DNA from: Minisyncoccota bacterium
GTDB lineage: Bacteria > Patescibacteriota > Minisyncoccia > Phycocordibacterales > GWA1-40-21
Direction of reading: 5' to 3'
DNA: 57,064 nt
Assembly: GCA_036171775.1 (NCBI GenBank)
Contig: JAVHRR010000003.1
Span: 1-57,064, forward strand
The notes beneath the pieces were generated by a model. The model had not been told where the DNA came from and made no database searches. It saw nothing but the letters and a program-made list of their open reading frames with translations. Of the stretch, positions 5,527 to 42,512 are shown one piece after another. Numbering within the stretch: position 1 is the stretch's first letter; the number at the start of each line of letters is the position of its first letter. Both the position numbers and the translations under genes were made by a program.

Positions 5527-5605
5527 GAGCTTGTAGGAAGTAGCTTCTTAGCTTTTTAGAAATTGAAGTTCCTAATAAGCTACTGTTCTAAAAAGCTACA
5601 AGCTG
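5527..5605. repeat. intergenic imperfect palindrome, family A (AGCTACAAGCT / CTAAGAAGCT words)
   Basis: The arms gagcttgtaggaagtagcttcttagc and cctaataagctac...aaaagctacaagctg fill the whole polA-tsaE gap. Related copies lie at 18147-18239, 25937-26015 and 29505-29583, with half copies at 268-312, 3007-3040 and 44848-44885. Confidence 0.7.
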
Positions 5606-13306: not shown

Positions 13307-13424
13307 AGTCGAAAGTTAAAAGTCTATAAAGTTTAAAGTATATATCAATACAAAAGACGAGTTCGCTTCGCGAACTCGTCTTTTGACTTTATGGACTTTA
13401 CAGACTTTAGACTTTGAACTTTTG
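13307..13424. repeat. family C palindrome (AAAGTC / GACTTTA words) enclosing a bidirectional terminator
   Basis: The arms agtcgaaagttaaaagtctataaagtttaaagt and gactttatggactttacagactttagactttgaactttt flank the hairpin aaaagacgagttcgc / gcgaactcgtctttt (13352-13384). The right arm encodes the last residues of RuvC. Confidence 0.7.
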
Positions 13425-18146: not shown

Positions 18147-18239
18147 AGGTTGTAGGTCGTAGCTTTTAGCTTATTAGTTTTTTAGAATAATTTATTTAAT
18201 TAAATTCTCTAAGAAGCCACTGAGCTACAAGCTAATTCC
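18147..18239. repeat. family A intergenic palindrome
   Basis: aggttgtaggtcgtagcttttagcttattag ... ctctaagaagccactgagctacaagctaattcc. Confidence 0.65.
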
Positions 18240-20941: not shown

Positions 20942-21024
20942 TGGTGTAAATTATAAATTGATTTCCTGCTTAAAAGAAATTTTTTATTGTGAATAAGTTG
21001 TGTACAACTAGTGGACAAGGAAGT

Positions 21025-21194
21025 TAAAAAAGTAAAATGAAAAATGAAAAAATATAATCACAAACTATAAATAAAATTCATCAATCATTATAACCGAAAC
21101 AGAAGATAAAAAGACTTGTATTTTCTATCGATTTGGGTTATATTGCATTGTAAGTGAATGAGATTGTTTATTTTACTTTTTTCATTTTACTTTT
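21025..21194. repeat. family D inverted-repeat unit (AAAGTAAAATGAAAAATG termini), ORF-less
   Basis: The left arm is aaaaaagtaaaatgaaaaatgaaaaaat and the right arm is ttattttacttttttcattttactttt. The unit ends 5 nt before the rpmH ATG. Confidence 0.65.
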
Positions 21195-21199
21195 AAATT

Positions 21200-21334
21200 A
21201 TGTCATTCACATACAAACCAAAAAAAAGAAAGAGAGCAAAAACCCACGGTTTTCTTGTTAGAAGTAAGGGTAAATATGGTAAAAACACCATAAAAAGAAG
21301 AAGACAAAAAGGAAGAGCAAAACTATCTGTATAA
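21200..21334 (+). CDS. rpmH: 50S ribosomal protein L34
   Basis: Hand translation gives MSFTYKPKKRKRAKTHGFLVRSKGKYGKNTIKRRRQKGRAKLSV (44 aa, below the ORF-track cutoff). It sits in the canonical position divergent from dnaA and upstream of rnpA. Confidence 0.9.
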   Translation: MSFTYKPKKRKRAKTHGFLVRSKGKYGKNTIKRRRQKGRAKLSV

Positions 21335-25936: not shown

Positions 25937-26015
25937 AGGTTGTAGTCGGTAGCTTCTTGGCTTCTTAGAAAATTAATACTTTATTTTAGTTCCTAAAAAG
26001 CTACAAACTACCTCC
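25937..26015. repeat. family A intergenic palindrome inside the T4SS-like locus
   Basis: aggttgtagtcggtagcttcttggcttcttagaa ... ttcctaaaaagctacaaactacctcc. Confidence 0.65.
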
Positions 26016-26026
26016 TACCACCTGTG

Positions 26027-27844
26027 TTACAGTCCCTGCGTCATTTTTAACTCCTCTTTTGCTTTTTTAATATTAAACAATTGTGATGGATCTGAAGTAA
26101 TAATCTGGTCTTCCGTATATGAGGCAATGATTTTGATAGCCACGTGTTTTAAACCCACAAAGAACATTCCCTCCCCCACATTTGATTCCAAAAGAAGGTA
26201 TTTTTCTTCATCAGTTAGGTTGAATACTTTTTGAAGATTATCAACAACGGTTGGAGACTGCTTCAAGAGTATCAACATTGAAGAGTTTGTAACGATAGGA
26301 AGTCCATAAGGAGATTTTAAGAAGTCCTCCACATCTTGAGTAATCGTGGAAAGGCCCAAGAAGTATTTTCGTCCCCTTTTTGCCATTGAGAACAAGAAAG
26401 AAGCAGCGTCATCTGACTTCATCATAATCCAAGCCTCATCCACCACCAAAAGTCTCTTCTTTTTATTTCTTTTTACAGCATTCCATATATAGTGGGTGAT
26501 AATATACATCGCAACTGTTTTTAACTCCTCTTCCATATCACGAATTGAAAATACAATAAATTTGTAGTTAATATTTATGTTTGTTGGTTTGTTTAGGAAA
26601 CCCGCCCAAGTACCTCTTGTATATTTTGAAAGTCTTTGGACGATAGACTCTGCCCCTTTCATTCCCGCAAGAACAAGTTCAAAGTCAGAAAGTAGAGGCG
26701 GTTCAACATTTGAAAAATCTGAGTCTGGAGTAATGTCTTTAAGTGCATAAGTCTCAGAAATAGCACGATCTATAATCGCATCTTCCTCAGGGGTAAGTCC
26801 ACCAAGCATGATTCTGAAAAGACCCACAAGGTTTATAATATTGCTTCTTAAAACATCCGCAGGTGACTCATCTTCTCCTGGCACAGGAAGATCGAAAGGA
26901 TTGATGTGGCTCGTTGAGTTTAGAGAAATATTGAAAGACTTCCCTCCTGTCGCCTCTGCTAACGCAGCGTATTCATTTTCAGGGTCAATAACCATAACGT
27001 CAATATCAAACATAAGGCTTCTTAGGATTTCTAGTTTTGTACAATAAGATTTACCAGAACCAGCCTTTGCAAAAGTAACCGAACTGTAATTTTCTAAAGA
27101 AAATCTATCAAAAATGACCAAGCTGGCATTGTGTCTGTTTATACCGTAAAGAATACCTTTGTCAGATGTAAGGTCAAAAGAAACAAAAGGAAAAATACTA
27201 GACAATGGTGAAGAGTTGAGCTTAGAGTGTACTTCCAAAAGGTCCGTTTCTATAGGAAGAATGCTCTTGAAACCTTGTTCTTGTTGGAAAAGAGCTGGTT
27301 TTACATATATCATTTTAGACTCTAGGATTGATTTGATTTCTGACTCTATTTTGTCCAACTCATTTTCAGTGTCGCCATATAAAGTGATATAAAGACCGAC
27401 ATCAAACAGCTTTTCTTGGGCTTGCATTAGACTGTCGCGCAAAGATTCTAGGTCTTGAGATGCGGTATCAAGCATCGGATCTCTCACGAGCCCTTTCTTT
27501 GTTCTTTCATTTATTTGGCTTTGTACTTCAGCTACCTTTTTTTGAAATTGTTTTAAAACCTTAGCTGTATCTACAGGGTGTATAAATATTGAAATATTAA
27601 AAACTTTATCAAGGTTTATTACAGGAGAAAACCAACTTTCTGTTAAATAACGAGGGTATGAAATAACAAAAAACGTTCTAACAATTTTTTCTCCAAGATT
27701 TAGCTGCTTGGGTGATATTTTTAATGCAGATGGCGCAATAATATCTTGCAACTCCAAAACACCAGCCTCATATATTTCTTGTGGCAAGAATGATGTAAGT
27801 TGTTCCTCTTTCTTTTTTGGTTTTAAAAAATCCAGTAATGACAT
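26027..27844 (-). CDS. VirB4/TrbE-like type IV secretion ATPase
   Basis: 605 aa with Walker A FAKAGSGKSY and Walker B RLLVVDEAW. The overall layout is a VirB4-type N-domain plus a C-terminal ATPase. Confidence 0.8.
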   Translation of the reverse strand: MSLLDFLKPKKKEEQLTSFLPQEIYEAGVLELQDIIAPSALKISPKQLNLGEKIVRTFFVISYPRYLTESWFSPVINLDKVFNISIFIHPVDTAKVLKQFQKKVAEVQSQINERTKKGLVRDPMLDTASQDLESLRDSLMQAQEKLFDVGLYITLYGDTENELDKIESEIKSILESKMIYVKPALFQQEQGFKSILPIETDLLEVHSKLNSSPLSSIFPFVSFDLTSDKGILYGINRHNASLVIFDRFSLENYSSVTFAKAGSGKSYCTKLEILRSLMFDIDVMVIDPENEYAALAEATGGKSFNISLNSTSHINPFDLPVPGEDESPADVLRSNIINLVGLFRIMLGGLTPEEDAIIDRAISETYALKDITPDSDFSNVEPPLLSDFELVLAGMKGAESIVQRLSKYTRGTWAGFLNKPTNININYKFIVFSIRDMEEELKTVAMYIITHYIWNAVKRNKKKRLLVVDEAWIMMKSDDAASFLFSMAKRGRKYFLGLSTITQDVEDFLKSPYGLPIVTNSSMLILLKQSPTVVDNLQKVFNLTDEEKYLLLESNVGEGMFFVGLKHVAIKIIASYTEDQIITSDPSQLFNIKKAKEELKMTQGL

Positions 27845-27858
27845 AATGTTATAAATTT

Positions 27859-27955
27859 AAAGATAAAAATGAAAAATGTAAAATTATAAACGCATTCTTT
27901 TGAATTAAATTTTCTATTTTGAATTTTATTTTTGATCTTTTCATTTTACTTTTTT
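27859..27955. repeat. family D inverted-repeat unit, ORF-less
   Basis: The arms are aaagataaaaatgaaaaatgtaaaatt and aattttatttttgatcttttcattttactttttt. The right arm overlaps the stop codon of the 27954-28586 ORF. Confidence 0.65.
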
Positions 27956-28586
27956 AATTTGGAATAATTGGTTTCTCCATATCTCCAGGGTTAAATATTT
28001 TATAGAATAATTCTACAATTTCCTCTGTTCCAAGCTGTGCCGTTCTAATACCACATCTAGATAAACCTTGTGAAATTGTGCCAATTCTCTGCTCCATTTG
28101 CGTTCTATTTTCATCAAAATGGTTTTTGTTTCCCGTGTTTACTTGAGGTGATCCACCTAATAGTTGACCAAAAGCACTTGAAGATTGCGAACCTGAGGTT
28201 GATGGAGAAAATGGTATTACTATAAAAAATGTTTTAGTCATTATACTTGTTTGCTCAACAAAGTTTTTCACAAACTGAATGTATTCTTTAATTTGTATTT
28301 TCATAAGATCCCCTACCTCATTTTTGTATCTTCCCTCCAACGTAGCCAAATATGGGCGAATATCTAATTCTCTAGATTGAATAGATATTTGAATAGAAAA
28401 ATCCAAACCGTTCAAGAAATTTTGGAACTGCATTATAATACCCTGCTGTTCATCTACAGACTTTAAAGCAAAGTTTACAGAAGAAGCCATAACAACAGAT
28501 CTCATTGAGCCGTCTTTTAATATGACAATTCCGTCACGTATTTCTTTTATTGGAACAAATTCTTGTGTGGCTTTAGATATGGGCAT
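27954..28586 (-). CDS. hypothetical protein in the T4SS-like locus
   Basis: A 210-aa ORF immediately upstream of the VirB4-like gene on the same strand. No family recognised. Confidence 0.5.
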   Translation of the reverse strand: MPISKATQEFVPIKEIRDGIVILKDGSMRSVVMASSVNFALKSVDEQQGIIMQFQNFLNGLDFSIQISIQSRELDIRPYLATLEGRYKNEVGDLMKIQIKEYIQFVKNFVEQTSIMTKTFFIVIPFSPSTSGSQSSSAFGQLLGGSPQVNTGNKNHFDENRTQMEQRIGTISQGLSRCGIRTAQLGTEEIVELFYKIFNPGDMEKPIIPN

Positions 28587-28591
28587 AATTC

Positions 28592-29062
28592 AAATGTAAA
28601 AAGTAAAGAGAAAAGTGAAAAAATAAAATTATAAAATTAAAAATAACAAATCACCTCTTCCCTCTCAGTGTAATTATACTAGATCCAAGGATATTTGCTA
28701 ATTCCACAGCTTCTTTTCTTAGTGAATCGACATCCTGACCTGCAGCTTTACCAGAATCAATCAATATCCCAAGCCAAAAAACTGTTTCATTTGCTGACTT
28801 TAAAGCGTGACTTATAAAATTTGTAAAATCTTTTTTACTGCTTCCTGCTTGTGCTTCTATGATATTAGCTCCAATACTAGTCGCGCTTCTTATTAGTTGT
28901 TTAGCTATTACTTCCGAAGACAAACCGTTTTTTATTATTATATCTATAAGTTTTATAATATTTAAGGCAAAAAAATAACTTCTTTTTTTGATATCATGTT
29001 TGTTAATATTATTTATCATTTATTTTTTAACTTTAAACTTTATTTTTACTTTTTACTCTTTT
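28592..29062. mobile_element. family D inverted repeats carrying a four-helix-bundle gene
   Basis: The left arm is aaatgtaaaaagtaaagagaaaagtgaaaaaataaaatt and the right arm is ttaaactttatttttactttttactctttt. The single ORF 28651-29019 lies between them. Confidence 0.6.
28651..29019 (-). CDS. four-helix-bundle protein (23S rRNA intervening-sequence protein / Avd-like family)
   Basis: 122 aa with the family pattern LIRSATSIGANIIEAQAGSSKKDF...ALKSANETVFWL. Confidence 0.75.
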   Translation of the reverse strand: MINNINKHDIKKRSYFFALNIIKLIDIIIKNGLSSEVIAKQLIRSATSIGANIIEAQAGSSKKDFTNFISHALKSANETVFWLGILIDSGKAAGQDVDSLRKEAVELANILGSSIITLRGKR

Positions 29063-29495
29063 ATTTTTGATCTTCCCTTGTTAGTGGATTTAAACTTTCT
29101 TTTATGTCCAAACTCCAAGTCAAATCCTTCAGCTTACTCCCTGACATTTTAGGAACCGAAACCAAAGATTTTGCCTTTTGTAGTTGATCAACAAGCTCGG
29201 TGGCAGGTTTCTTTTCTGTTTTTTTCCACAAATACAACTTATCGCCCAACATGTAGTAAAAAAAGGCTTGAACCACATCCACAAAGGGTTTATCATTTAT
29301 TCTGTAGAAAGTAAGTGCCAATGAAAAAGCGACAATTGGAATTATAATAAGTATTGCAATAAATTTATATGGAATATACATATAAAGAGCTATTGCTGCA
29401 CCCGCACCACCAGCCATATATAAAAACTGTTTCAAGGTAAATGGCCCGAAAATCTTATCCTCGACTTCTATAAATTGTGGTACTTGGAATTGCAT
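29061..29495 (-). CDS. PrgI family (VirB3-like) membrane protein
   Basis: The N-terminus MQFQVPQFIEVEDKIFGPFTLKQFLY is followed by two TM helices. I recall this as the hallmark of PrgI-family T4SS proteins. Confidence 0.6.
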   Translation of the reverse strand: MQFQVPQFIEVEDKIFGPFTLKQFLYMAGGAGAAIALYMYIPYKFIAILIIIPIVAFSLALTFYRINDKPFVDVVQAFFYYMLGDKLYLWKKTEKKPATELVDQLQKAKSLVSVPKMSGSKLKDLTWSLDIKESLNPLTREDQK

Positions 29496-29504
29496 ATTTT
29501 TAAC

Positions 29505-29583
29505 AGGTTATAGGCCGTAGCTTTTTAGCTTTTTAGGAAATGCATTAATTGTATTTCCTAAGAAGCTAATAAGCTACAAGCTA
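29505..29583. repeat. family A intergenic palindrome inside the T4SS-like locus
   Basis: aggttataggccgtagctttttagctttttaggaa ... ttcctaagaagctaataagctacaagctag. Confidence 0.65.
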
Positions 29584-29587
29584 GTTT

Positions 29588-42387: not shown

Positions 42388-42512
42388 GGACTAGTCTAAA
42401 GTTGAAAGTCAAAAGTCTATAAAGTAAATACAAAACAAAAAGGAATTTTCACAGAGCGAAAATTCCTTTTTGTTTTTGAATTACTTTCGACTTTATGGAC
42501 TTTACAGACTTT
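42388..42512. repeat. family C palindrome enclosing a bidirectional terminator
   Basis: The arms ggactagtctaaagttgaaagtcaaaagtctataaagt and ctttcgactttatggactttacagacttt flank the hairpin acaaaaaggaattttc / gaaaattcctttttgt (42435-42473). Confidence 0.7.

Follow-up and report, generated by a model that had tools for sequence, protein, structure and literature searches.

Our analysis indicates that a gap in a T4SS-like operon probably holds an insertion cassette of about 480 nt built like an ORF-bearing intervening sequence (IVS) of 23S rRNA, that is, one PF05635 gene together with two inverted arms of tandem words, lying in the sense orientation of the operon. The window (the whole stretch of 57,064 nt that was analysed) belongs to contig C3 of a genome of 759 kb with 35% G+C, here called G000, the relatives of which are Patescibacteria. 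The T4SS-like locus is on the minus strand and encodes, in this order, a 962-aa polytopic protein, a 251-aa protein, a PrgI-family protein, the 122-aa product of the four-helix-bundle (4HB) ORF, a 210-aa protein and a VirB4/TraG-like ATPase (Table 1). According to the initial annotation, the cassette fills the gap between the PrgI-like and the 210-aa genes, starting 5 nt from the ATG of one and overlapping the stop codon of the other. The coordinates confirm this: the 5' arm includes the stop codon of the PrgI-like gene (29061-29063) and finishes at the ATG of the 4HB gene, and the 3' arm extends from just past the 4HB stop codon to 5 nt short of the ATG of the 210-aa gene (28586).

Table 1. 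The 4HB cassette, its host genes and ORF-less units of the window (shuffle values: number of shuffles, out of 1000, reaching the observed score).
Feature	Positions	Strand	Evidence or remark
ORF-less unit with arms of the family D type, in the dnaA-rpmH spacer	21021-21200	+	shuffle 1/1000
VirB4/TraG-like ATPase gene	26027-27844	-	T4SS-like locus
ORF-less unit of an A-arm and a T-arm, filling the 210-aa/VirB4-like gap	27845-27957	-	weak by shuffle, 105/1000
210-aa host gene, downstream of the cassette	27954-28586	-	conserved in 57/61 relatives
Downstream (3') arm, T-rich in sense, complementary to the 5' arm	28592-28650	-	complementarity, folding, shuffles
122-aa 4HB gene, PF05635/TIGR02436, intact	28651-29019	-	profile and 2RLD match, dN/dS
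Promoter-like TTAGCA-17-TATAAT inside the 3' end of the 4HB gene	28673-28701	-	consensus match only, function inferred
Upstream (5') arm, A/G-rich in sense, TAAAAAG/GTAAAAA-type words	29020-29068	-	complementarity, folding, shuffles
PrgI-family host gene, upstream of the cassette	29061-29495	-	T4SS-like locus
ORF-less hairpin of TAGCTTN words, between the 251-aa gene and the PrgI-family gene	29508-29585	-	shuffle 0/1000

The profile matches place the 122-aa protein clearly in the PF05635/TIGR02436 family: it scores 73 bits against PF05635 (cut-off 33.8) over residues 7-112 of 122 and 82 bits against TIGR02436, "four helix bundle protein" (cut-off 24), and its sequence matches the solved Bacteroides structure PDB 2RLD with an E-value of 5.9e-18, on the strength of which we assign it the up-down four-helix-bundle fold. 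A single-sequence AF2 model features four long helices (residues 7-30, 36-58, 62-92 and 98-120), at low confidence (pLDDT 61). The crystals 2RLD and 2GSC contain five chains each, and a homopentameric ring of the family is inferred only from these; PMC4990558 cites Lin 2006 on homopentamers of the family. A PADLOC search yielded no defence-system match for the protein. The dN/dS ratios are 0.05-0.16 in eleven pairs of 4HB genes, which demonstrates purifying selection and implies that the protein is made and matters.

The initial annotation had further placed this ORF between A/T-rich inverted arms, and both parts of the statement are borne out, the ORF by the profiles and the 2RLD match, the arms by complementarity and shuffling. 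The aligned arms (28598-28646 and 29020-29068) are 76% complementary over 49 nt, and RNAfold predicts for the sense RNA that the whole 4HB ORF is closed by a terminal stem. Since A-rich sequences pair easily with T-rich ones, each arm was shuffled separately 1000 times, its dinucleotides and its A- or T-richness being kept. The inverted-repeat (IR) score of the arms is 48, compared with 32.1+-5.1 in the shuffles, and was reached in 9/1000 of them (z 3.1); the duplex dG is -24.9 kcal/mol, compared with -17.7 kcal/mol, a value reached in 20/1000. The arms are thus of low complexity but reflect more than composition; they are real, not the low-complexity coincidence that a shuffling test might have exposed, but stand only modestly above composition-matched shuffles. 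The word GTAAAAAGTAAA is present on both arms and occurs 10 times genome-wide, with about 0.5 occurrences expected by a rough estimate from base composition alone. An ORF together with a terminal-inverted-repeat stem of tandem heptamers is one of the criteria for an IVS, and the cassette of the 122-aa gene meets it.

A census of PF05635 genes in G000 identified exactly two, both in operon gaps. The second paralogue (C17:14499-14888) lies between ftsZ and trxB and is tightly bracketed by inverted arms, the score of which was reached in 0/1000 shuffles. The expectation that each paralogue would be flanked by arms of the word type named family D in the initial annotation therefore holds for the presence of inverted arms and fails for the words, as the C17 arms consist of GATTYAA words. 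Since they are built from a different word, the feature shared by the two copies is the architecture and not the sequence.

Among the relatives the 4HB gene is distributed patchily, with 0-8 copies per genome; it was found in 29/61 relatives' genomes and in 14/25 genomes within the genus. We collected 51 copies with their flanks and scored the complementarity between the 110 nt before the start codon and the 140 nt after the stop codon. An IR score of at least 30 was observed for 62% of 47 full-length copies of the relatives; among 610 control ORFs from G000 the share was 4.3% (Mann-Whitney p 2e-19). A further 78 copies were drawn from numerous classes of Patescibacteria and from some additional labelled phyla; of these, 50% score at least 30 and 69% at least 25; copies with low scores still show word arrays, in a slipped register. 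The arms of the family consist of three to five tandem words of 7-8 nt each (for example, TAGTATN, GTAGTGA, AAAGTYN, GAATNAT and CTGGAAN). In the relatives, the 5' arm often runs up to and includes the ATG, and the stop codon is frequently where the 3' arm begins. Most 5'-arm words contain TAG or TAA, and a role of these as three-frame stops was considered but dropped as a rule, because several arm families are without stops.

Of the copies, 45/49 share the orientation of the upstream neighbour, nearly always that of the downstream one as well, and adjoin both. These neighbours are genes that we take to be housekeeping ones (rpsG>fusA, frr>rseP, ftsZ>trxB, a DHH-family gene>obg, a valS-like gene>tatD, dut, pyrG), and about 11/50 copies lie inside the T4SS-like locus. 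Mapped onto the protein tree, the types of arm word are distributed by clade, and one and the same clade can be found at many different sites; the clade with AAAGTY words occupies at least six. For cassettes at different sites, the similarity of arm 5-mers rises with protein identity (rho 0.285; 0/500 label permutations), the mean Jaccard index of the arms being about 0.20 at 55% protein identity or more and about 0.05 in the background. At the level of sequence comparison, this establishes that the 4HB gene and its arms travel together as one unit.

The correspondence between words and protein clades could also mean that the cassette's own product recognises and reads the arms. A toroidal 4HB oligomer would then sit on the tandem words of single-stranded RNA or DNA, regulating its own translation or acting in propagation, and the complementarity of the arms would be secondary; TRAP, which binds its own triplet repeats, provides an analogy for such a ring on tandem words. 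The number and length of the words, the 5' arm often ending in the start codon, the word type following the protein clade across sites, and the homopentamers in the 2RLD and 2GSC crystals are all compatible with this role. However, the words differ sharply between fairly close proteins, as do GATTYAA and ATCGAAT within one clade, and the correlation is just as well accounted for if arms and gene are inherited together. In the absence of binding data we regard such a role of the arms as unlikely; it does not exclude that they belong to an insertion cassette.

The insertion site was compared among relatives by taking the 210-aa gene with its flanks from 29 of them; 27 of these loci have both flanking genes. 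In 22/27 the gap between the PrgI and the 210-aa genes is 9-88 nt long. In the short-gap relatives the ATG of the 210-aa gene is usually preceded, at a distance of about 11 nt, by a conserved TGTGTATAAT (an extended -10 element), which is absent from all filled sites. G004 has an orthologous cassette in the gap (75% at the amino acid level), with shorter arms on both sides. G005, whose gap of 88 nt is among the 22, contains a remnant of 76-89 nt that is 79-80% identical to the 3' end of the 4HB ORF and the T-arm, and it retains the segment holding the promoter-like TTAGCA-17-TATAAT. In G015 and G017 the gap is occupied by a 4HB gene of a different clade, flanked by a near-perfect inverted pair of TAGCTTN words of 30-32 nt, and in G014 by an unrelated two-gene insert. 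Relatives without the insertion, which the initial annotation had suggested as a comparison, thus exist: most sites are empty, one holds an orthologue, one is decayed and two carry unrelated 4HB cassettes. The two genes of the G014 insert (L017 128-1500) overlap and encode 190 and 237 aa; the first has no Pfam match, and the layout resembles that of a toxin-antitoxin or Abi pair.

Neighbouring gaps show the same variety. In most relatives the 210-aa and VirB4-like genes are 1-14 nt apart or overlap slightly, and in G015 and G039 a 4HB cassette lies between them; in G015 this is a further cassette, at the place where G000 has only an ORF-less unit. A 4HB fragment of 51 aa was found in the gap before PrgI in G003. 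Altogether, five gaps (PrgI>210-aa, 210-aa>VirB4, 251-aa>PrgI, rpsG>fusA and frr>rseP) are taken by cassettes of different clades in different genomes. As far as can be reconstructed from these loci, they demonstrate that the cassette was gained in the PrgI/210-aa gap in the lineage leading to G000, G004 and G005 and is decaying in G005, and that other cassettes of the family settled independently in this gap and its neighbours.

The cassette and its flanks are equally diverged between G000 and G004, which fits vertical descent. Between G015 and G017, in contrast, 28% of the identical-residue codons differ in the cassette and 44% in the PrgI gene, the 210-aa gene and the VirB4 gene (Fisher p 0.0016), and 35% of four-fold sites differ in the cassette and 54% in the flanks (p 0.036). 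This suggests that the cassette is younger than the split of the hosts, although the lower synonymous divergence could partly reflect constraint. Two smaller observations concern individual copies. In the 210-aa/VirB4 gap of G039 (L082, C3), a direct repeat of 41 nt, comprising the start context with the ATG, precedes both the 4HB gene and the VirB4 gene; this repeat gives the impression that the cassette went in along with a duplicate of the host gene's start context. Broken 4HB copies were found at G035 C46:1595-1911, G053 C3:16944-17261 and G039 C4:92133-92366, one split in two frames and two with an internal TAA or TGA; one of the three sits upstream of the 210-aa gene. Such copies fit a turnover of cassettes.

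Direct signs of transposition were looked for in several ways. No near-identical cassettes were found at different sites among about 128, the best pair from different sites being 78% identical at the nucleotide level. Neither a target-site duplication nor a flanking direct repeat was found at the window copy, and only 5/49 cassettes have any direct repeat upstream and downstream, the 41-nt repeat of G039 being one of these. A domain search revealed no recombinase, nuclease or transposase domain in the cassette. Of the criteria for transposons and MITEs, terminal inverted repeats are therefore met, and target-site duplication and a transposase are not. RAYT-like genes are present elsewhere in G000, but their palindromes differ from the cassette arms: the IS200/RAYT-like proteins of about 220 aa (C14:1001-1666, C16:18998-19636 and C42:1543-2208) have REP-like palindromes on both sides. 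Neisserial Correia elements are short inverted-repeat MITEs in transcribed intergenic regions, and their stems are RNase III substrates. The cassette family resembles them in having many ORF-less copies and in being lineage-restricted and burst-like in number, and differs from them in lacking a transposase partner and target-site duplications and in having arms that are tandem word arrays and not unique terminal repeats. In summary, the initial description of the cassette as a self-contained insertion module is supported by the series of empty, filled and remnant sites and by the family-wide arms, with the mechanism of movement being inferred and not demonstrated.

G000 also holds dozens of ORF-less units with word arms. 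In comparison with third-order Markov simulations, word tracts of family D are found 19 times versus 5.8; for other word tracts, the observed and expected numbers are 122 and 26 (TAGCT-type), 23 and 0 (AAAGTY), and 11 and 1.8 (GATTYAA). Many of these tracts are arranged as inverted pairs separated by loops of 20-140 nt; in some cases a classical terminator or an entire promoter region lies within the pair. Two ORF-less units of the window had been described as bounded by arms of the same type as those of the cassette. For the unit at 21021-21200 this is upheld by shuffling (1/1000), and the two units share an exact 16-mer that has only three occurrences genome-wide (21028+, 21179- and 27938-), whereas the unit at 27845-27957 fails the shuffling test when taken alone (105/1000). 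More ORF-less word-arm hairpins of the window were found at 13316-13418, 42398-42512, 5542-5604, 18160-18234 and 25949-26017. Two units of AAAGTY words between convergent genes of the window enclose a classical GC-stem terminator in the loop; a 4HB gene with AAAGTY arms is absent from G000 and present in G006, G007 and G011.

The TAGCTTN hairpin next to the PrgI gene is 94% identical to a hairpin beside the G017 cassette and is built from the same word family as the G015 and G017 arms. Matches to this hairpin family number 37 in G000 (at about 18-20 loci), 40 in G004, 27 in G015 and 19 in G001; the hairpins occur in 10/23 genomes of the genus (G000 included), and none were found in 13 other genomes of the genus or outside it. 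This distribution suggests MITE-like behaviour. A present-day pairing of these hairpins with a 4HB gene is not supported, as G001 and G005 have the hairpins and no PF05635 gene, which means that TAGCTTN hairpins need no resident 4HB gene today. The ORF-less hairpins of the same word families may be either deletion derivatives or non-autonomous relatives of the cassette.

These numerous hairpins raise the question of whether the hairpin came first and the gene second, i.e. whether the hairpins are independent MITE-like or host structural elements and the 4HB genes are cargo that landed in or beside them. The dozens of ORF-less units in G000, some of which enclose terminators or promoters, the occurrence of TAGCTTN hairpins in two genomes without a 4HB gene, and the type-B layout of G015 and G017 (arm, ORF, second arm copy, loop, opposite arm), which amounts to an ORF beside a complete hairpin, could be explained in this way. 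Arm words that follow the protein tree across sites would be unexpected if genes landed in unrelated resident hairpins, however, and 4HB genes are armed about 15 times more often than other genes, so that we consider this order of events quite improbable. That the 122-aa gene is an ordinary resident gene, its flanks being complementary merely because leaders are A-rich and trailers T-rich in an AT-rich genome, is hardly tenable: the arms are indeed of low complexity and one ORF-less unit fails the shuffling test, but composition-preserving shuffles reach the observed score in so few cases (9/1000), the second paralogue and relatives' copies have arms that are not AT-biased (0/1000), the site is empty in most relatives, and 62% of the copies are armed against 4% of the controls.

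Finally, since Avd, the accessory protein of diversity-generating retroelements (DGRs), belongs to the same 4HB superfamily as PF05635 (PMC10053308), we searched G000 for other DGR components. The sole reverse transcriptase (RT) gene of the genome (in the region C21:19560-23132; L003 781-2436) encodes a protein of 551 aa that matches the defence classes UG14/Drt6 with an E-value of 7e-58. No TR/VR pair was found: the share of A- or T-biased mismatches is at most 62.5% in any repeat pair. The 122-aa protein has no match to the Avd equivalog model NF033474 (cut-off 80 bits). With a defence-type RT on another contig, no TR/VR-like pair and the Avd model not met, the candidate DGR was rejected, in accordance with the earlier proposal that the module lacks a reverse transcriptase; this applies to an assembly that is 92% complete and contains neither a DGR-type RT nor an adenine-biased pair. 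A protein of 243 aa without a family match adjoins the C21 RT. We give next to no credence to the remaining possibility that the 122-aa gene is an orphan Avd left from a DGR: PF05635 includes Avd-like proteins (PMC10053308) and the C17 paralogue matches the Avd model weakly (28 bits), but the window protein does not match it, neither an adjacent RT nor TR/VR is present, and dozens of the relatives' copies lie between housekeeping genes.

For the IVS-like cassette, the following course of events can be proposed. The cassette would rely on read-through transcription from the host operon, and in the transcript its arms would pair into a stem of about 45 bp enclosing the 4HB ORF. RNase III, which is encoded in G000 (C27:758-1150), would probably cut this stem, as shown for rRNA IVSs, and free the cassette RNA. 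A cut in the stem would leave the 5' end of the 210-aa mRNA only a few nucleotides from its AUG. Such an end would suit the genome, in which the starts of TATAAT peak sharply at -12 from the start codons (22 genes at -12; 56/629 at -17 to -12, whole G000) and SD-like motifs are rare, suggesting that leaderless or near-leaderless mRNAs are common in the lineage. The 210-aa gene, which lost its ancestral promoter to the cassette, may in addition be transcribed from a promoter-like element in the cassette's 3' end; TTAGCA-17-TATAAT is the best promoter-like match in the region, and its retention in the G005 remnant hints that the 210-aa gene now depends on this segment. The mismatches in 32 arm pairs comprise 28 that are G-U-compatible and 21 of the A-C type for sense RNA (p 0.39), and without a G-U bias these counts do not favour an RNA stem over a DNA hairpin.

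Knowledge of rRNA IVSs and of the S23p ORFs in them goes back to the early 1990s; to our knowledge, neither a function nor a mode of spread has been established for them. In the helix-45 IVS of the Coxiella burnetii 23S rRNA, the S23p ORF lies in the loop of a 28-bp terminal-inverted-repeat stem, tandem heptamers stand just before its ATG, RNase III cuts in the stem, and the ORF is decaying and apparently untranslated (PMC4990558). Like the 23S IVSs of Coxiella and Leptospira, the cassette has an ORF of the PF05635 family in the loop of an inverted-repeat stem, with tandem heptamer words directly 5' of the start; like rRNA IVSs, it is sporadic among relatives, and both are regarded as selfish. 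It differs in lying in an intergenic gap of a protein-coding operon and not in an rRNA helix, so that the criterion of insertion into rRNA is not met. Unlike the Coxiella ORF, that of the cassette is under purifying selection (dN/dS about 0.1), and RNase III processing of the cassette is only inferred.

Tsurumaki et al. 2024 (PMC11270868) described 23S_rRNA_IVP ORFs in insertions of CPR rRNA genes, scattered over several sites, with ORF-containing and ORF-less forms at the same site. These ORFs belong to the same protein family and are from the same bacterial radiation as the cassette, but lie inside 16S and 23S genes, and neither arms nor copies in operon gaps are reported (PMC11270868). Heptameric tandem repeats, often in convergent inverted pairs between co-oriented ORFs, were described in Xanthomonas and Nostoc by Rehm et al. 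2015 (PMC4692102). They resemble the cassette arms in being transcribed and in forming inverted pairs able to make stem-loops; in contrast to these arms, they are G-rich and are interpreted as quadruplex formers, with no enclosed gene and no mention of a link to 4HB proteins (PMC4692102). In the literature searched, we found no link of PF05635 genes in operon gaps to inverted word arms. The present analysis contributes the series of empty, filled and remnant sites, the repeated independent colonisation of gaps, the correlation of arms and protein across sites, and a cassette apparently younger than its flanks.

If the module is common in operons, under purifying selection and repeatedly gained and lost, the rRNA IVS would be a special case of a broader cassette, which would also explain part of the load of intergenic hairpins in the ultra-small genomes of Patescibacteria. 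For annotation, it would follow that short "hypothetical" 4HB genes within operons are insertions and not members of the operon. A more general view, possible but doubtful at present, is that 4HB cassettes are the gene-bearing form of a widespread IVS class able to settle wherever a spacer is transcribed, be it in an rRNA helix or in an operon gap. In this view, the tandem words of the arms would be recognised by the ring of the element's own protein, which would aid maintenance or spread without a known transposase, and the unexplained heptamer arrays and inverted heptamer pairs between genes of many bacteria (for example, Xanthomonas and Nostoc) would be ORF-less footprints of the class.

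Several other genes of G000 are bracketed by palindromes of different kinds. Two GIY-YIG nucleases of 94 aa (C43:18056-18340 and C34:3377-3661) lie between TGTCATTCCCGCG..GGAATCC hairpins, and proteins of about 130 aa that are Cas2-like or have a PaaX_M domain (C6:49054-49455, C41:20039-20431 and C27:4663-5052) are bracketed by other palindrome families. The highest IR score in the genome, 125, belongs to a flanking inverted repeat of 80 nt around C48:4417-5178, which we read from its sequence as a triosephosphate-isomerase-like gene; this repeat is made of a AAAACTTTAACGGGT-type element, family E of the initial annotation.
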